Source: Candidatus Aenigmatarchaeota archaeon (GTDB lineage: Archaea > EX4484-52). From it: DNA of 17,300 nt. Shown in pieces: positions 1 to 7,740 of the stretch. Location: positions 1 through 17,300 of the forward strand of contig JAGLPV010000004.1 of NCBI GenBank assembly GCA_023137195.1. Reading direction: 5' to 3'. The translations under genes were made by a program, and so were the position numbers. The notes under the pieces are model-generated. The model made no database searches. It was not told where the DNA came from and saw only the letters and a program-made list of their open reading frames with translations. The stretch's first letter is position 1. Every line of letters starts with the position of its first letter.

Positions 1-1
1 A

Positions 2-1003
2 GGAAGAAAACAAGATGAAGACTATGCTAAACTGGATTCAGACGGAATTATTTCTCCGGGTCAGCACGTTGACACAGAAGATATATTGGTAGCAAAATCA
101 TCGCCACTTAGATTTGTGGATACTGAAAAAGAAATACATATGGGTATCAGCAACATGCATGATAATTCAGTAAAAACTTCAAGAAATGAACCGGGCACAA
201 TAGAACAGGTTCTTATTACATCAACAGAAGAAGGAGAAGCTCTTGTAAAAGTAGGTGTGAGAGAACACAAAATACCCGAAATAGGAGACAAATTCGCAAC
301 CAGGCACGGGCAGAAAAGTGTCGTAGGTATGATTGTTCCTGAAGAAGATATGCCAACCACGGCAGACGGCAGGACACCAGACATTATATTTAATCCACAC
401 GCAATCCCATCACGTATGACTGTAGGTCAGATAATGGAAATTATTGCCGGCAAATACGGCGCATTGATTGGAGAAAAAATAGATGCAACTGTATTCGGAA
501 GCAAAAAAGAAAAAATAGTAAGCGGACTCGAAAAATTAGGATTCAATAATAACGGGAAAGAAACACTCTATGATGGAAGAACGGGTAAAAAAATAGAATC
601 TGAAATTCTCATGGGCGTCTGCTTTTACCAGCGACTTTACCAGTTGTCATCTCATAAATTATATTCAAGATCAAAAGGACCGGTCACTCTACTTACAAGA
701 CAACCAACAGAAGGAAGAAGTAAGGGCGGCGGTCTAAGACTGGGAGAAATGGAAAAAGACTGTATACTTGCACACGGAGCGGCAATCTCTCTACACGAGA
801 GATTCAGTTGCGACCACCAGAAAGTAAAAATATGTAATAAATGCGGAGTGATTGCAATAATGGACACTGAGAAAGGAAAATATCACTGCCCTATCTGCAT
901 GAAAAACGACATAGGTGAAATAAAAATACCGTCTGCTTTCAAATTATTGATAGATGAAATGATTTCAATGATGATATACCCTAAAATAATAATAAATGAT
1001 TAA
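2..1003 (+). CDS. rpoB: DNA-directed RNA polymerase subunit B (Rpo2), C-terminal part, 5'-truncated by the window edge
   Basis: The frame is open from position 2 (GRKQDEDYAKLDSDGIISPG...), so the track start at 86 is internal. Motifs: GDKFATRHGQK, EDMP..DG.TPDIIFNPHAIPSRMTVGQ, LTRQPTEGRSKGGGLRLGEME and a C-terminal CxxC...CxxC zinc ribbon. Confidence 0.97.
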   Translation, partial: GRKQDEDYAKLDSDGIISPGQHVDTEDILVAKSSPLRFVDTEKEIHMGISNMHDNSVKTSRNEPGTIEQVLITSTEEGEALVKVGVREHKIPEIGDKFATRHGQKSVVGMIVPEEDMPTTADGRTPDIIFNPHAIPSRMTVGQIMEIIAGKYGALIGEKIDATVFGSKKEKIVSGLEKLGFNNNGKETLYDGRTGKKIESEILMGVCFYQRLYQLSSHKLYSRSKGPVTLLTRQPTEGRSKGGGLRLGEMEKDCILAHGAAISLHERFSCDHQKVKICNKCGVIAIMDTEKGKYHCPICMKNDIGEIKIPSAFKLLIDEMISMMIYPKIIIND

Positions 1004-1015
1004 TCAGGTAATAAT

Positions 1016-4000
1016 ATGAGTAAAATAAAAAGAATTGATTTTGGTTTAATAGCTCCTTCGGTTGTAAGAAAACTTGCAGTCATAGAAATTACATCTCCGG
1101 ACGTATATGATACAGACGCACTTCCTGTAGAAGGAGGGATAATGGATTTGCGACTGGGTGTTGTAGATCCCGGCTCAAGATGCAAAACATGCTTTGGCAA
1201 GTTGGATACCTGCACAGGACACTTCGGATATATTACTCTTGCAAAACCCATAATAAATGTACTCTACATCAACTATATCAAAAAAATATTACAGGCAACA
1301 TGCCATAAATGCGGCGCATTGTTACTGGGCGAAAATGAAATCAAAAAAATGGAGGATGATGAAACTGAAAATTTCATAAGCATCAAATTAACAACTACAA
1401 AAAAATGCCCTAAATGCGATGAAGAGGTAGAAAAACTAAAACTCGAAAAACCACATACCTTTAAATACGGGAAAAAAATACTAAATCCTTTGGAAGTAAA
1501 AGAACACATGGATCGAATCAGTGACGAAGATTTAGAAAAAGTAGGATTTAAAGGAGGCAGACCCGAATGGATGGTTCTCACTCTTTTCTTAATACCACCC
1601 ATTTCTTCAAGACCCTCTATCATGCTTGAAAACGGGGACCGAAGTGAAGACGATCTTACTCACAAACTCGTGGACATCATAAGAATCAACGAGAGATTGA
1701 AAGAAAATGTAAATATTGAAACACCATCCTTTATTATTGATGACCTATGGGAACTCCTGCAATACCACGTAACAACTTATTTTAACAATGAACTAACAAA
1801 CATTCCTCCGGCAAGACACAAATCCGGAAGACTACTGAAGACATTATCTTCGCGTCTTAAAACAAAAGAAGGAAGATTCAGACTAAACCTTACAGGAAAA
1901 AGAGTAAATTATTCCTCTCGTGGTGTAATTTCACCGGATCCACAGATACATGTCAATGAAGTAGGCGTACCAATAAGTGTCGCCCAGGAATTGACTATCC
2001 CTGAAGTAGTAAATGAAAAGAACAAGGAATTTCTTTCCGGTCTTATAAAAAATACAGGCAATTATCCTACTGCTCAATATGTCGTCAGCGATGGATTAAG
2101 AAAAAAAGTAATGGAAAGCAACGCAGAATATATCTCAGATGAATTAAAAAATGGCGATATTGTAGAGAGGCAAATGATTGACGGAGATATTGTATTATTT
2201 AACAGGCAACCATCCCTTCACAGGATGTCCATAATGGCACACTATGCAAAAGTCATGCCGGGGCATACATTCAGACTAAATTTATGCGTATGTAAGCCAT
2301 ACAACGCTGACTTTGACGGTGATGAAATGAATCTTCACCTGATGCAGACCGCAGAAGCAAGAGCAGAAGCAAAAAAGCTTATGCTCGTGGAAGCAAACAT
2401 GCGTTCCCCTAAAGCCGGAGCCCCGGTTATGGGATGCGACCAGGACTACATCTCCGGAGCATATATGCTAACCAGAAATAACACAATTCTCACAAAAAAA
2501 GAAACAGCAAAAATATTAGCAGCAGCAGATATTTACATGGAGTTAGACAAAGAAAAATACACAGGTAAAGAACTATTCAGCTTTCTTATCCCGGACAACA
2601 TAGATATAACCTATGAAACAGACATCTGTTCAATCTGTGAATTAAACGAAAAATCAGACTGCAAACACGACTACAATGTCATCATAAAAAAAGGTAAATT
2701 ATTACAGGGTGTAATTGAAAGCAAGGGTCTGGCATCCTTTAAAGGAAGACTACTAAACCAGATAGATATGATGTGCGGACACAAAGCAGCTGTTGATTTT
2801 TTATATGATATTACAAGAGTCATTGTAGAATTTATGCTTCTTAAAGGATTTTCTATATCAATAGACGATGTCTCTATCTCAAAACAGGCAAAACTCAAAA
2901 TAAACAACGAACTAAACGCCATGGGAGAAAAAGCAGAGGAATACATAGATAGTTACCAAAAAGGAAAAATCAAGGGAAAATATGGGCTTAAACCAAAAGA
3001 ACTCCTTGAAGGAAAAGTCATAAAAGAAATAAGTGATACAACTTCAAAGACACAAAAAATCATAGAAGCAGATGCTGGAGAAAACGGAGCAACAATAATG
3101 GCAAGAACCGGAGCAAGAGGAAGCCTACAGAATCTTATATATATGAGTGCTTTCCTTGGTCAGGAACTGGTCCGGGGGAAAAGAATATTCCGTGGATATG
3201 AAGACAGAACTCTATCTTTCTTTGAAAAAAATGATTTAGGATTAACAGCTCATGGCTTTGACAGAAACTCACTAAGTGATGGAATATCCTACACAAACTT
3301 CTTCTTTGAAATTATGAAAGGAAGAGAAGGACTGATGGACTCTTCCCTAAAAACAAAAGTCAGTGGATACATGCAAAGGCGTCTTGTCAATGCACTTCAG
3401 GATTTTATTGTAGATAAAGACAAAAAAGTAGTTGGAGCAGACGGTGAAATTGTACAATTCCTTGCCGGCGAAGATGGAATAGACCCATCAAAAAGTAATT
3501 TTGGAAAACCTTTCGAAAACAGGAAAGATTCTGAATATGAAGCAGGCGAAGCAATAGGAATTGTATCATCACAGTCCATCTCAGAACCGGCAACACAGAC
3601 AACACTAAGATCATACCATGCTGAAGGTCGACTGACACTTACAACAACAAAAGGACTCCCAAGAATTCTGGAACTAATTGACGGAAGAAAAGAGCCGACA
3701 ACACCTGCCATGAACATCTATTTGACAAAAGAATTCGACAATGAAAAAGGAGCATACTTGATTGCATCAAAAATAAAGGAAATCAAGCTCATTGATGTAT
3801 TAAAAGAAGACACAATCAATGCTTTTGACTTAAACGTTGAAATAAAAATAGATAAAAAAATAGCAGACTCGTTCTCCATAAAAACACCGGATATCCTGGA
3901 AGCTATAAAAAAAGCAGACAAAACAATAATTTGCGTTGCAAAAGAGGATAAAATCATAGTGTCCTTCAAAAAAGAAAATAAAACAATACAAGACCTCCAT

Positions 4001-4519
4001 GAATTGAGAGTAAAATTAAGAGACTCTTATGTTGGCGGAATTAAATCCATAAAACAGGTAATTATTGAAGAAGAAGAAAAGACATGGATAATAAAAACAC
4101 TTGGATCCAACTTAAGAAAAGTCCTGAAAATAAAAGGAGTTGATCCCACAAGAACTATTTCAAACAATATTTTCGAAGTTGAAAGGGTTCTCGGAATAGA
4201 GGCAGCAAGACAGAGCATCATCAACGAAATCTGGTCAACTATGAAAGAACAGGGTGTGCAGACAAACATAAGGCACCTTCTCCTTGTAGCTGATTGTATG
4301 ACGGCAACAGGCACAATAAAATCAATTGGAAGAGCAGGAATATCTGGCGCAAAAAATTCTGTTTTGGCGCGTGCAAACTTTGAAGAAACTGTAAAGAACC
4401 TAACAAAAGCAAGTGTATGTGGAGAAGCAGAAAAGTTCGGAGGAATTGTTGAAAACCTAATTGTCGGCTCCGTTGTACCTGTGGGAACTGCTAAAGTCAA
4501 ATTAAAGATGAAAGAATAA
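1016..4519 (+). CDS. rpoA: DNA-directed RNA polymerase largest subunit, fused A'+A'' (Rpo1), 1167 aa
   Basis: Clamp Zn sites (CKTC..C..H, CHKC..CPKC), RSEDDLTHKL, GKRVN, FNRQPSLHRMS, catalytic NADFDGD (2303-2323) and bridge helix GREGL..SGYMQRRL. A''-type motifs follow in the same frame (GEAIG..QSISEP.TQ, GLPR, LGIEAAR, RHLLLVAD, LARANFEET). SD-like AGGT at 1006-1009. Confidence 0.97.
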   Translation: MSKIKRIDFGLIAPSVVRKLAVIEITSPDVYDTDALPVEGGIMDLRLGVVDPGSRCKTCFGKLDTCTGHFGYITLAKPIINVLYINYIKKILQATCHKCGALLLGENEIKKMEDDETENFISIKLTTTKKCPKCDEEVEKLKLEKPHTFKYGKKILNPLEVKEHMDRISDEDLEKVGFKGGRPEWMVLTLFLIPPISSRPSIMLENGDRSEDDLTHKLVDIIRINERLKENVNIETPSFIIDDLWELLQYHVTTYFNNELTNIPPARHKSGRLLKTLSSRLKTKEGRFRLNLTGKRVNYSSRGVISPDPQIHVNEVGVPISVAQELTIPEVVNEKNKEFLSGLIKNTGNYPTAQYVVSDGLRKKVMESNAEYISDELKNGDIVERQMIDGDIVLFNRQPSLHRMSIMAHYAKVMPGHTFRLNLCVCKPYNADFDGDEMNLHLMQTAEARAEAKKLMLVEANMRSPKAGAPVMGCDQDYISGAYMLTRNNTILTKKETAKILAAADIYMELDKEKYTGKELFSFLIPDNIDITYETDICSICELNEKSDCKHDYNVIIKKGKLLQGVIESKGLASFKGRLLNQIDMMCGHKAAVDFLYDITRVIVEFMLLKGFSISIDDVSISKQAKLKINNELNAMGEKAEEYIDSYQKGKIKGKYGLKPKELLEGKVIKEISDTTSKTQKIIEADAGENGATIMARTGARGSLQNLIYMSAFLGQELVRGKRIFRGYEDRTLSFFEKNDLGLTAHGFDRNSLSDGISYTNFFFEIMKGREGLMDSSLKTKVSGYMQRRLVNALQDFIVDKDKKVVGADGEIVQFLAGEDGIDPSKSNFGKPFENRKDSEYEAGEAIGIVSSQSISEPATQTTLRSYHAEGRLTLTTTKGLPRILELIDGRKEPTTPAMNIYLTKEFDNEKGAYLIASKIKEIKLIDVLKEDTINAFDLNVEIKIDKKIADSFSIKTPDILEAIKKADKTIICVAKEDKIIVSFKKENKTIQDLHELRVKLRDSYVGGIKSIKQVIIEEEEKTWIIKTLGSNLRKVLKIKGVDPTRTISNNIFEVERVLGIEAARQSIINEIWSTMKEQGVQTNIRHLLLVADCMTATGTIKSIGRAGISGAKNSVLARANFEETVKNLTKASVCGEAEKFGGIVENLIVGSVVPVGTAKVKLKMKE

Positions 4520-4584
4520 TTAATTTGACCATCAACCAAAATCTTCCTATATGTTCTGTGGAAATACAAGAAGAGAGATATTCT

Positions 4585-4592
4585 TTTTTAAA
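4585..4592 (+). promoter_or_regulatory. Putative TATA box for the DP1 gene
   Basis: TTTTTAAA ends about 20 nt before ATG 4613, the spacing expected for a leaderless archaeal transcript. Confidence 0.45.
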
Positions 4593-4612
4593 CTTGCATC
4601 TCATATCAAATA

Positions 4613-6103
4613 ATGACCAGGGATAAAATCTCAAATGCAAAAGAATTTCTATCTGCCCTCATCAGCAAAGGACTTCTAATTGAACCGGCAACTTTTGAGT
4701 CAATAAAAGAAATGTTCCAAAACAAAGCCAATATTGCCTGCCTTGTCGCAGAATCAATATGTAACGATTCATCAGACGAAATCAACTCTAATACAATAAA
4801 AGAAAAAATCAAATTTTTCGAGGACCAGGAAAAAACAAAACAAAAAGTCACAATAAAAAAAACAATCAAAAAAACAAGAAAAGACTACGATGCACAGGTA
4901 AAAATCAGGAAAATCAAAGAAAACACAGCTAAAAAAAATACAACTTTATTTTGCGACTACTTTCTAAGCAGGTATGAAAAAATAAAAAAAATCCTGGTGA
5001 GGCATCTTGATCTGACAAATCTCGTCTCTATCAACAACCTAAATTCCTCGAAAAGAAACGGGGATATCTCAATCATAGCCATAGTAAAAGACAAGATAGA
5101 AGCAAAAACAGGAACAATTCTGCTGGATGTAGAAGACAAGACCGGAGCTGTTCGCGTATTCGTAAAAGAAGCGGACTTGTGTCAAAACATAATCAATGAT
5201 GAAGTGATTGGCATACAGGGAAACCATTTCAGTGGCGGAATCATTGCAAAAAAAATTATTTTTCCGGAAATCCCTTTCCCACAGGAAGTAAACAAAATAG
5301 AAGAACCACTAAAAGCTGTTTTCATAAGCGACGTGCACCTGGGCAGTAAAGAATACTTAAAACTCGTCGAAGAAAAATTTCTCAAATGGATTAACAAAGA
5401 CAGCCAGACACAAGATGTAAAATACCTCTTTATTTCAGGCGACAACGTAGATGGAGTAGGCATCTACCCAAGCCAGAAAGAAGACCTGGAAATAAATGAT
5501 ATTTACGAACAATATGCTGAATTTGAAAGATTCATTGAAAAAATACCCGAAGAAATAGAAATCATGATTTGCCCGGGAAACCACGATGCAGTTATGCAGT
5601 TTGAACCGCAGTTTGCCCTGGATAAAGTCTATGTCCCAAATCTAGTGAACCGCTCAAATGTCCATCTCGTAAAAAACCCGGAATACATCTACCTCCACAA
5701 CAACGATGACAGCAATGGTCTGAAGGTTTTAATGTATCACGGCTATAGCTTCACAAGTATAATTGACGTAATCCCGGAATTAAGAAAACACGGTCTTTCC
5801 CACCCCGAATACGTCATGACAGAGGTCCTAAGAAAAAGGCATGTCGCTCCATTGTACGGAGCAAGCATCGTAGCACCTGCAACAGAAGATTACCTCGTAA
5901 TGGATGAAATCCCTGACATTTTCCAGACAGGTGATTTGCACAGCCATTGCCTCAAAAATTACAAAGGAACAACTCTTATTTCATCAAGCACATTCCAGGG
6001 ACAGACTAGTTTCATGGACAGGGTGGGTCACATAGCAAACCCGGGAAAAGTGTCTATGGTTGATTTACATACAAGAGAGTGTTTTATCAAGAATTTTATG
6101 TAA
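4613..6103 (+). CDS. polB: DNA polymerase D small subunit DP1 (OB fold + calcineurin-like 3'-5' exonuclease)
   Basis: OB region (LDVEDKTG..DEVIGI.G) and phosphoesterase motifs SDVHLGS, GDNVDGVGIYPSQ, PGNHDA..EPQ, YHG, RHVAPLYG, PDIFQTGDLH, STFQGQTSF. Confidence 0.95.
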   Translation: MTRDKISNAKEFLSALISKGLLIEPATFESIKEMFQNKANIACLVAESICNDSSDEINSNTIKEKIKFFEDQEKTKQKVTIKKTIKKTRKDYDAQVKIRKIKENTAKKNTTLFCDYFLSRYEKIKKILVRHLDLTNLVSINNLNSSKRNGDISIIAIVKDKIEAKTGTILLDVEDKTGAVRVFVKEADLCQNIINDEVIGIQGNHFSGGIIAKKIIFPEIPFPQEVNKIEEPLKAVFISDVHLGSKEYLKLVEEKFLKWINKDSQTQDVKYLFISGDNVDGVGIYPSQKEDLEINDIYEQYAEFERFIEKIPEEIEIMICPGNHDAVMQFEPQFALDKVYVPNLVNRSNVHLVKNPEYIYLHNNDDSNGLKVLMYHGYSFTSIIDVIPELRKHGLSHPEYVMTEVLRKRHVAPLYGASIVAPATEDYLVMDEIPDIFQTGDLHSHCLKNYKGTTLISSSTFQGQTSFMDRVGHIANPGKVSMVDLHTRECFIKNFM

Positions 6104-6126
6104 AATAATTTTCATAATAGACGATA

Positions 6127-6164
6127 GAAAAATTTATATAGATAATACCAATAAATAGTATTAT
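6127..6164 (+). promoter_or_regulatory. BRE/TATA promoter with a downstream palindromic operator candidate for the abiE operon
   Basis: GAAAAA-TTTATATA (6127-6140), then ATAATAC-N9-GTATTAT (6142-6164), which abuts ATG 6165. Confidence 0.6.
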
Positions 6165-6944
6165 ATGGAAAAAAATATATACTTATCAAAAAAAGAACAG
6201 GAAGTTTTCAATGTCTTAAGAGACCTAAAAAACCCTGTTATTGAACACGACCAGCTAAAAGATGTTTTCCAACATAATAAATATTTAAACAAAACAATCA
6301 GTAGTCTTATAAGAAAAAAATATTTTTTAAAAATAAAAAAAGGACTGTATTTGATACAAAAAGAGCCGTCAGATAAAATAAACATAGATGATATATATGC
6401 TATTGCACTGAGAATTAAAAAAGGATATTTTGCTTTTTCAACAGCCCTGCGATTGCATAATCTTATGGAATACGAACCATTTACTATCTACATTGCAACA
6501 AGCCATAAGCCGGAAGAAATCAAAATAAGCAATTACCTGATAAAAGCAGTTAACTACACCAAAATAGGCAATATAACAACCATCAATAAATATCCTGTTT
6601 CAACAAAAGAAAAGACCTTTTTTGACTGCTTCAATAAGCCACAATACTGCGGTGGCTTTTACCAGATAACTAATGCTCTCTACAGCACCAGAATAAACTG
6701 GAAAATCCTTTTAACTTATTTCAAAAAACATGCCTCAAATGTCCTATGCCAGAAAACAGGCTATATTCTGGAGCAGATGAAAGAAAAAACAAATTATGAA
6801 ATTCCCAATTATGTAATCAATTATTTGAAAACAAGAATAAAAAATAAGGTCTATCTAATCGCAGGACAAAAAGGAGGCAAATATAATAAAGAATGGAAAT
6901 TAACGGATAATGACCGAAATTTCTTAAAATGGTATTATGGCTGA
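6165..6944 (+). CDS. abiEi: AbiEi-family type IV antitoxin / transcriptional regulator
   Basis: N-terminal winged-HTH-like segment (ISSLIRKKYFLKIKKGLY), GYFAFSTALRLHNL, and STKEKTFFDC..KPQYCGG. It overlaps the downstream nucleotidyltransferase gene by 8 nt (ATGGCTGA). Confidence 0.85.
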   Translation: MEKNIYLSKKEQEVFNVLRDLKNPVIEHDQLKDVFQHNKYLNKTISSLIRKKYFLKIKKGLYLIQKEPSDKINIDDIYAIALRIKKGYFAFSTALRLHNLMEYEPFTIYIATSHKPEEIKISNYLIKAVNYTKIGNITTINKYPVSTKEKTFFDCFNKPQYCGGFYQITNALYSTRINWKILLTYFKKHASNVLCQKTGYILEQMKEKTNYEIPNYVINYLKTRIKNKVYLIAGQKGGKYNKEWKLTDNDRNFLKWYYG

Positions 6945-7740
6945 TTTAAAATATTTACGATATAAATCCCTGGAAACCGGCTTTGGCTTAAATTACATAT
7001 CTAAAGAAGAAAAACTGTCTTTACTTCTATACGATTTATCGACCCTCTTAACTGACAAATTCATAATAAAAGGCGGAACTGCCCTAAATCGCGCTTATCT
7101 AATAAATAAAGGACTCTCCAGATTTTCTGAAGACATAGACATAGATTATATTGCAGAAAAAAAATTTGATGAAAAAATAAAAGATACAGCCAAAATCATG
7201 GATAAAATCAAATCATTTGATGTCGCAAAATCAAGACTTATGAATAAAACGCTCCGGTACGATTGCTATTACATCAATGAATTAAACCATAAAGACAGGA
7301 TTCAGGTTGAGTTCTATTTAGCCCACGATAAAATTATCTGTCAGCAACAGCCAGGGAAAAAAACATTGAAATCCTCTTTTATAGAATCGCAACTTGCGTA
7401 CTTAAGAGTTTATTCCTTCGAGGATCTATTCGCAAGGAAAATAATTGCCTGTTTAAATAGGATGGAAGGAAAAGACATTTACGACTTGTTTTACTGTTTC
7501 GAAGTTAATTTCGACAAAAAGACATTAAAAAAAGCAATTGTCAAAATAGCAGAATTTTATGGATTGCCCGGCAATGCAAAAGAAATAATAATAAAACTAA
7601 TCCAAAAATTAAATTCTGTTGAAAACCAGTATTATATCGGAACTTCAACAAATCATTTTATCCCGCGAAATTTAAGACCAGACTGGAAAATAATAATTAT
7701 TTCATTAGCAGACAAGCTAAAGTTAAATTTATTATTGTAA
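6937..7740 (+). CDS. abiEii: AbiEii-family (DUF1814) nucleotidyltransferase toxin
   Basis: Signature KGGTAL...RFSEDIDI, then EDLFARKI.A..NR..GKDIYDL. Translationally coupled to the upstream antitoxin gene. Confidence 0.9.
   Translation: MADLKYLRYKSLETGFGLNYISKEEKLSLLLYDLSTLLTDKFIIKGGTALNRAYLINKGLSRFSEDIDIDYIAEKKFDEKIKDTAKIMDKIKSFDVAKSRLMNKTLRYDCYYINELNHKDRIQVEFYLAHDKIICQQQPGKKTLKSSFIESQLAYLRVYSFEDLFARKIIACLNRMEGKDIYDLFYCFEVNFDKKTLKKAIVKIAEFYGLPGNAKEIIIKLIQKLNSVENQYYIGTSTNHFIPRNLRPDWKIIIISLADKLKLNLLL

Follow-up and report, generated by a model that had tools for sequence, protein, structure and literature searches.

A fused rpoA in what is probably the only RNA polymerase operon of an aenigmatarchaeal DPANN archaeon

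The window, by which we mean the whole stretch of 17,300 nucleotides (nt) analysed here, is the entire contig JAGLPV010000004.1 (C34) of a metagenome bin assigned to Candidatus Aenigmatarchaeota (G000, hereafter the source genome), which measures 1.42 Mb in 57 contigs with a completeness of 84.8% and a contamination of 0.72%. At its left end lie two genes for large subunits of RNA polymerase (RNAP): the 3' part of rpoB', whose frame lacks a start codon and is truncated at the contig start, and an rpoA in which A' and A'' are fused. Substitutions in the active centre of this enzyme had led an earlier reading, made from the sequence alone, to propose either the sole RNAP of a fast-evolving lineage or an additional, specialised RNAP. 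The first of these alternatives is the one supported here. With a probability of about 0.87, the window carries the distal half of the only RNAP operon of an uncultured, small-genome DPANN archaeon, encoding its normal cellular transcriptase with A' and A'' fused and with somewhat accelerated drift, and not a specialised second polymerase.

The RNA polymerase operon and its copy number

All five Rpb1 domains (PF04997, PF00623, PF04983, PF05000 and PF04998) are found in order in the window's rpoA, each scoring over the cut-off, and the catalytic NADFDGD and zinc sites reported by the sequence-only reading are indeed kept (Table 1). The string standing after NADFDGD is HLMQ (amino acids (aa) 441-444), where the majority of archaea have HVPQ. 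The best solved relatives of the protein are the A' chain (4qiw_A, E 1.2e-236, query 4-833) and the A'' chain (4qiw_C, E 1.2e-74, query 841-1165) of Thermococcus kodakarensis. Both large subunits had been described as intact open reading frames (ORFs); this is true of rpoA, but the RpoB of the window consists of only the last 333 B' codons, cut by the contig end.

The proximal half of the operon stands at the end of another contig, C14, where rpoH is followed by rpoB'' and then, in another frame, by the start of rpoB', which runs off the contig. The two B' parts match complementary stretches of the Rpb2_6 profile, 2-119 at the end of C14 and 129-373 at the start of the window. In 18 of the 18 relatives showing both parts the spacing between them is exactly 24 nt, so that about eight rpoB' codons fall in the assembly gap. 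A 3637-base contig from run X1 overlaps window positions 1-123 and extends upstream, and G003, a genome of the same genus, has an open B' frame of 598 codons; rpoB' is probably intact in the organism. So far as their contigs extend, the order rpoH-rpoB''-rpoB'-rpoA is identical in 20 of 20 fetched relatives.

RpoB is encoded in the source genome by two genes, B'' and B', as judged by their separate frames on C14 and by Pfam Rpb2_6 and Rpb2_7 in the window. Within the order most members have the split form, whereas G005 and G012 (family f3) encode the subunit in one gene of 1098 codons. In G007 (C89; L103, reoriented coordinates 2695-6972), rpoB' and rpoA' share one 1426-codon frame without a stop; this B'-A' frame, seen in one genome only, is either a gene fusion or a sequencing error. 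Fusion of the beta and beta' subunits is known for some bacteria.

Table 1. Features of the RNA polymerase locus, with further genes discussed in the text. Positions are nucleotides of the window unless a contig of the source genome or an amino-acid range is given.
Feature	Position	Strand	Basis
rpoB' 3' part (last 333 codons + stop)	2..1003	+	Rpb2_6 profile 129-373/373, E 1.6e-85; Rpb2_7 (Pfam)
RHGQKS (rpoB')	302-319	+	motif search
KLYSRS (rpoB')	656-673	+	motif search
C-terminal CxxC...CxxC zinc ribbon (rpoB')	833-898	+	motif search
Fused rpoA (A'+A'', Rpo1), 1167 codons + stop	1016..4519	+	Pfam Rpb1 domains 1-5
rpoA zinc motifs CxxC...CxGH; CxxC...CxxC	aa 56-69; aa 96-99/131-134	+	motif
Switch-2 string RLKTKEGRFRLNLTGKR	rpoA aa 280-296	+	motif
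Catalytic NADFDGD (aa 430-436)	2303..2323	+	motif
Bridge-helix core MKGREGLMDSSLKTKVSGY (aa 767-785), order-wide variant	3314..3370	+	alignment
A'/A'' fusion junction (aa 818-848)	3467..3559	+	landmark spacing vs split relatives
Trigger-loop start TQTTLRSYHAEGR (aa 860-872), order-wide variant	3593..3631	+	alignment
PolD small subunit (DP1)	4613..6103	+	Pfam DNA_pol_E_B + Metallophos
259-codon ORF	6165-6944		no Pfam match
AbiEii-family nucleotidyltransferase gene	6937-7740		Pfam, E 2.6e-25
rpoH	C14:48223-48555		
rpoB'', 495 codons	C14, frame ends 50051		
rpoB' 5' part (first 255 codons)	G000:C14:50056-50820 (frame opens 50050)		Rpb2_6 profile 2-119
rps12-rps7	G000:C1:88423-89458		
uL2	G000:C15:12029-12739		
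PolD large subunit (DP2), 1665-codon open frame	G000:C20:10588 onward		

In a rooted tree of RpoA and RpoB the order is monophyletic and the family containing the genus of the source genome (f1) is the first to branch; its sister group consists of additional records, of which three are labelled Aenigm(at)archaeota. The nearest named records in a species-representative collection, at 51-54% identity, are labelled Aenigmatarchaeota, Nanohalarchaeota and, in one case, 'archaeon'. Near-identical DNA occurs in cold-seep metagenome runs; the runs listed include no RNA data set, which tells neither for nor against expression.

Profile searches of the source genome gave one match to Rpb1_2 and two to Rpb2_6, the latter being both halves of one B' gene, and tblastn of rpoH, B'', both B' parts and A against the genome returned no further match better than E 1.1. 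A second rpoB/rpoA1/rpoA2 set, for which the sequence-only reading had suggested a search, was found neither in the source genome at its 84.8% completeness nor in 40 relatives, among them 10 of 10 with a completeness of at least 90%. Matches to rpoA are present in 40 of the 41 genomes (the source genome and the 40 relatives), all of them A', A'' or contig fragments thereof, and G002 (71% complete) yielded no rpoA match. Apparent pairs of A' copies in G014 and G039 were rejected, being overlapping contig ends that are 94% and 97% identical in DNA. In the source genome Rpo7, TFS and TFB are each encoded by a single gene.

These data bear on the proposal that the window encodes an additional, specialised paralogue, standing to a housekeeping enzyme encoded elsewhere as plant Pol IV/V stand to Pol II. 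The missing part of the assembly leaves room for a second locus, as the case of RpoD (Rpo3) illustrates: this subunit was not found in the source genome with PF01000, PF01193 or the G003 protein, is present in G001-G003, all of the same genus, and probably lies in the unassembled 15%. A sequence somewhat more diverged than those of other core genes also speaks for a paralogue. Nevertheless, the absence of another copy from the source genome and its 40 relatives, together with a location in the canonical rpoH-rpoB-rpoA operon that is orthologous by position and phylogeny to the only RNAP of those relatives, makes this proposal very improbable. Strong purifying selection also argues against it: the ratio of non-synonymous to synonymous substitution rates (dN/dS), which the sequence-only reading had advised computing among relatives, is 0.080 for rpoA between the source genome and G003, at a dS of 1.25 that is near saturation. 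The tempting picture of an archaeon with two RNA polymerases is thereby removed, and we infer that the single enzyme works normally, with TBP/TFB-dependent transcription predicted.

Fusion of A' and A'' within the order

A' and A'' form one frame in the window, as the sequence-only reading had it, and the fused rpoA is common to three species of the genus: the source genome, G003 (a 1172-codon open frame between stops) and G001, the last two being other species at 82-83% protein identity to the first. Measured between a motif that precedes GEDG and the trigger-loop start, the junction region spans 59 residues in the source genome and G003, 89-100 in split relatives and 136 in G007. A' and A'' were joined by a deletion that took away the A' tail with its stop, the spacer and some 30 residues at the head of A''. 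The match to T. kodakarensis A'' starts no earlier than chain residue 58, as follows if the A'' head was mostly deleted. This head is described in PMC11515920 as an archaea-specific N-terminal addition of Rpo1C.

A 57-contig metagenome bin in which a contig end interrupts the operon invites the suspicion that the fusion is an artefact of assembly or binning, either a sequencing error or a contig from another organism. However, the same shortened, fused junction is found in G003 and G001. No indel is listed where contigs of runs X1, X2 and X3 span the junction, and those of X2 and X3, two runs of the study to which the possible source run also belongs, show 0 differences there. The G+C content of the contig is 0.357, typical of the genome at 0.353, and within-genus RpoA distances (0.166-0.177) are in the range of those of EF2 (0.133) and uL2 (0.187-0.209). 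An artefact is barely credible on this evidence. In a separate observation, all four runs show contig depth rising 5-12 fold over window positions 2157-2464, the NADFDGD region, where loose ends are numerous. The extra depth comes from conserved rpoA of other organisms present in the metagenomes and is no feature of the source genome.

Elsewhere in the order, G027 and G037, both of genus g6, have fused rpoA another way, with everything kept and a linker added (99 residues), while rpoA is split in four other g6 genomes. At least two A'-A'' fusions thus arose independently within the order, by different routes. In five further genomes (G031, G022, G019, G040 and G013; L098-L102) A' and A'' lie in the same frame, with one TAA or TAG between them and the A'' ATG 1-10 codons further on. 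We rejected these as cases of fused rpoA, each having one in-frame stop, and counted them as split; one point mutation or read-through separates them from a fused protein.

Beyond the order, a sample of 80 named loci, which is biased toward long single matches, has A in one frame in 57, with in-frame stops in 12 and split by another frame or a spacer in 11. According to PMC5484517 and PMC4084955, RpoA is unsplit in Thaumarchaeota, Korarchaeota and Bathyarchaeota and was secondarily fused in Pacearchaeota. Among those rows that matched our search pattern, many having been missed, the bridge-helix and trigger-loop motifs lie 60 residues apart in the source genome, 124-127 in records labelled Bathyarchaeota, Nitrososphaeria and Thermoproteota, and 59-60 in one Altiarchaeota-labelled and one Micrarchaeota-labelled record. 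Common descent with the unsplit rpoA of Thaumarchaeota and Bathyarchaeota is borne out neither by placement in the RNAP tree nor by this spacing (60 against 124-127). In the titles and abstract beginnings that were searched we found no report of a fused rpoA in Aenigmatarchaeota, and PMC11237513, which deals with fusion and fission protein families in Archaea, contained no RNA polymerase terms. The fusion described here adds another independent instance to a kind already known.

The large-subunit genes of RNAP appear to be unusually labile in this order, with at least two fusions of A' and A'', five genomes with in-frame stops, RpoB both split and fused, and one B'-A' frame. RpoA splits and fusions were treated as rare events and used to argue for the position of the archaeal root by Da Cunha et al. 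2017 (PMC5484517). Lability of this degree makes split or fused status ill suited as a 'rare genomic change' with which to root the archaeal tree, and two RpoA fusions within a single order weaken it as a phylogenetic marker.

Active-centre motifs and the rate of change

The strings that the sequence-only reading had singled out in switch 2, the bridge helix and the trigger loop are present at the positions given in Table 1. Their supposed clustering in the last two elements, on the other hand, is not seen when relatives are compared. In 9 of 9 order relatives the bridge helix reads MKGREG(L/I)MDSSLKT(K/R)(V/I)SGY, the trigger loop starts with TQ(T/I)TLR(S/A)YH, and switch-2 position 283 is S or T. 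Outside the order, Aenigmatarchaeota-labelled records carry MDKSL(K/H)T-type helices; helices of the MD(S/K)SL(K/H)T type are found in five Aenigm(at)archaeota-labelled records, one labelled Nanohalarchaeota and several without label, and Micrarchaeota-labelled records show yet other variants. Of the 36 labelled records displayed, 10 likewise have another residue in place of the HVPQ proline; two of these, labelled Micrarchaeota, read H-I-M-Q.

Counted only where the residue is conserved in at least 90% of the other families of the order, changes specific to the genus number 0/28 in the bridge helix, 0/15 at the trigger-loop start, 2/26 around switch 2 and 1/25 around the catalytic loop (P443M). 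The 46 genus-specific changes in RpoA are scattered across all Pfam domains, at 5-15% each. Because the motif variants occur order-wide and in other Aenigmatarchaeota-labelled records, the unusual bridge-helix and trigger-loop strings, and most of those in switch 2, are inherited traits of the lineage, and the proposal of a remodelled active centre was overstated in that the elements it named are lineage-wide variants. Bridge-helix and trigger-loop strings that textbooks present as 'invariant' vary among DPANN lineages as inherited traits.

Conserved sites were also defined on 89 sequences (9 order relatives and 80 named loci; tblastn, query-anchored). RpoA of the source genome differs at 14 of 241 sites conserved in at least 90%, about half of the differences being conservative (R/K, V/I, L/M, D/E, I/L), and ranks 15th of 92 for deviation at conserved Rpo1 sites, where the median is 2.1% and the maximum, in a Micrarchaeota-labelled record, is 11.5%. 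For RpoB the corresponding counts are 9/82 in B'', 1/45 in the N-terminal part of B' and 8/94 in its C-terminal part.

In uncorrected distances, the ratio of the distance from the source genome to the other families over the distance among those families is 1.17 for RpoA, 1.30 for B'', 1.11 and 1.26 for the two B' parts and 1.18 for RpoH, compared with 1.08 for EF2, 1.09 for uL2, 1.16 for S12 and 1.09 for S7. Branch lengths were then compared on one fixed topology of 19 genomes under LG+G4+F, with rows below 70% coverage left out. The topology came from a fast tree search without support values, the alignments were anchored on the source genome with insertions dropped, and only six comparators (EF2, uL2, S12, S7, SecY and the first 760 residues of DP2) were used.

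Several results, in addition to the incompleteness of the assembly, weigh against the view of an ordinary enzyme subject to drift. The stem of family f1 measures 0.697 substitutions per site for RpoA and RpoB and 0.491 for the comparators; their ratio, 1.42, exceeds that of every other branch (0.40-1.15). Relative to the rest of the tree the stem is 0.174 +/- 0.008 for RNAP and 0.097 +/- 0.005 for the comparators, the ranges from 30 site bootstraps of each being disjoint. Replacements peculiar to the genus at sites conserved in the order amount to 89/861 in RNAP and 52/867 in the six other proteins (Fisher p 0.0011). Finally, three RpoB residues depart from near-universal states: the last G of RHGQKG, found in 89 of 89 other sequences, is S (RHGQKS); the H of HARS, found in 82 of 89, is Y (KLYSRS), which upholds the substituted RpoB His motif of the sequence-only reading; and Y311, found in 89 of 89, is S. 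All three replacements are common to the source genome and G003.

The excess is nonetheless uneven and confined in time. Per marker, the ratio of stem to rest of tree is 0.146 for RpoA, 0.254 for B'', 0.213 for the C-terminal part of B', 0.106 for EF2, 0.080 for DP2 and 0.133 for uL2, with 0.197 for S12 and 0.184 for S7 on fewer taxa; RpoA alone is not far from some comparators. In the rooted tree of RpoA and RpoB, f1 measures 0.72 from the order root to the tips and the other families 0.42-0.64. Within the genus the RNAP excess is gone, the terminal-branch ratios being 1.04 and 0.83, and rpoA is under strong purifying selection. A divergence matching the genome-wide level, which in the sequence-only reading would have made the locus unremarkable, is therefore seen in part, a moderate RNAP-specific excess remaining on the genus stem. 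The acceleration of RNAP was moderate and is now past. On the genus branch the large subunits gathered about 1.4-1.8 times as many replacements as other core proteins did, probably including a few at near-universal sites of the RpoB initiating-nucleotide pocket.

Did these replacements remodel the enzyme adaptively? By their motifs, K105 and Y221 of the window's RpoB would be the putative equivalents of Lys1065 and His1237 of the E. coli beta subunit. In E. coli RNAP these two beta residues contact the alpha- and gamma-phosphates of the first initiating nucleoside triphosphate, according to PMC3994528. The replacements in the RpoB initiating-nucleotide (i-site) pocket, G to S next to the conserved lysine and H to Y in HARS, the P-to-M replacement following the RpoA catalytic loop and the Rpo1C N-terminal addition discarded at fusion could then together have altered initiation or nucleotide handling and affinity on the genus branch, plausibly in a host-dependent symbiont living on scavenged nucleotides. 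The RNAP-specific excess on the f1 stem and the replacement of residues conserved in 82-89 of the 89 archaeal sequences compared would fit such an episode, as would the return to normal rates after the stem and the dN/dS of 0.08, which are compatible with a past episode followed by constraint. We nevertheless regard it as unlikely. About half of the 14 RpoA changes at conserved sites are conservative, changes are even over the domains with the bridge helix and trigger loop spared, several records labelled DPANN or Bathyarchaeia deviate more than the source genome, and the HVPQ proline is replaced in other lineages as noted above. Initiation properties may have shifted, but the evidence gives this no support. 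We infer instead that the extra changes represent drift or mild compensatory change with no new activity, in keeping with a normal transcriptase. The RpoB replacements at near-universal positions offer natural variants for asking how essential these residues are.

Neighbouring genes and known systems

In G005 the four ORFs after rpoA'' encode L7Ae/L30e, a NusA-type KH protein, S12 and S7, and ORFs of the same sizes, judged by size only, follow rpoA in most other families. In the source genome and G003 (75% identity between their DP1 proteins) the gene after rpoA is that for DP1, which stands at this place in none of the loci of the other 19 relatives. The sequence-only reading was correct that the usual downstream genes are absent: DP1 replaces rpl30e-nusA-rps12-rps7 in a genus-level rearrangement, and on the genus branch these four genes parted from the other genes of the operon. 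Clusters of ribosomal and RNAP genes lie dispersed over the source genome. Its rps12-rps7 pair, detached from the RNAP operon, is on contig C1, and uL2, on C15, stands alone without its usual ribosomal-protein neighbours. The DP2 gene on C20 lies in a longer open frame than in most relatives, where it spans about 1145-1175 codons (1632 in G010); its length suggests an inserted element such as an intein.

Further 3' in the window, DP1 is followed by an unassigned ORF overlapping an AbiEii-family gene, by genes for S15, CorA and glutaredoxin, and also by an AP-endonuclease-2-family gene, DnaK, a DUF58 protein and an alanine-dehydrogenase/PNT-family gene. S15, DnaK and the AP-endonuclease-2-family gene bear out the conventional housekeeping neighbours described earlier. 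The AbiEii-family gene overlaps the ORF 5' of it by 8 nt, the arrangement of an AbiE-type toxin-antitoxin pair. The G003 counterpart of this ORF is 75% identical and broken into two short frames.

Compared with the split Rpo1N/Rpo1C of T. kodakarensis (4QIW) and Sulfolobus/Saccharolobus (2PMZ, 2WAQ), the source genome agrees in the order of the domains and in having the catalytic loop, zinc sites, bridge helix and trigger loop, but in one polypeptide whose junction is about 30-40 residues shorter and from which most of the Rpo1C N-terminal addition is gone. With the unsplit, A-type RpoA of Thaumarchaeota, Korarchaeota and Bathyarchaeota, and with the secondary fusion of Pacearchaeota, it shares a single rpoA gene. 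It differs in that its fused form is nested in an order whose other families are split, and therefore represents a separate, secondary fusion.

Split RpoB (B''/B') is known from methanogens and haloarchaea. As in those groups, here two genes that overlap or abut, B'' and then B', lie 3' of rpoH; in contrast to them, the order of the source genome has both the split and the single-gene state. Plant Pol IV and Pol V are specialised paralogues in which the bridge helix and trigger loop have diverged, and the likeness to them is limited to active-centre strings that depart from the textbook consensus. Here no paralogue was found in the source genome at its 84.8% completeness or in the 40 relatives, and the differences are inherited by what is probably the sole RNAP of an entire lineage.

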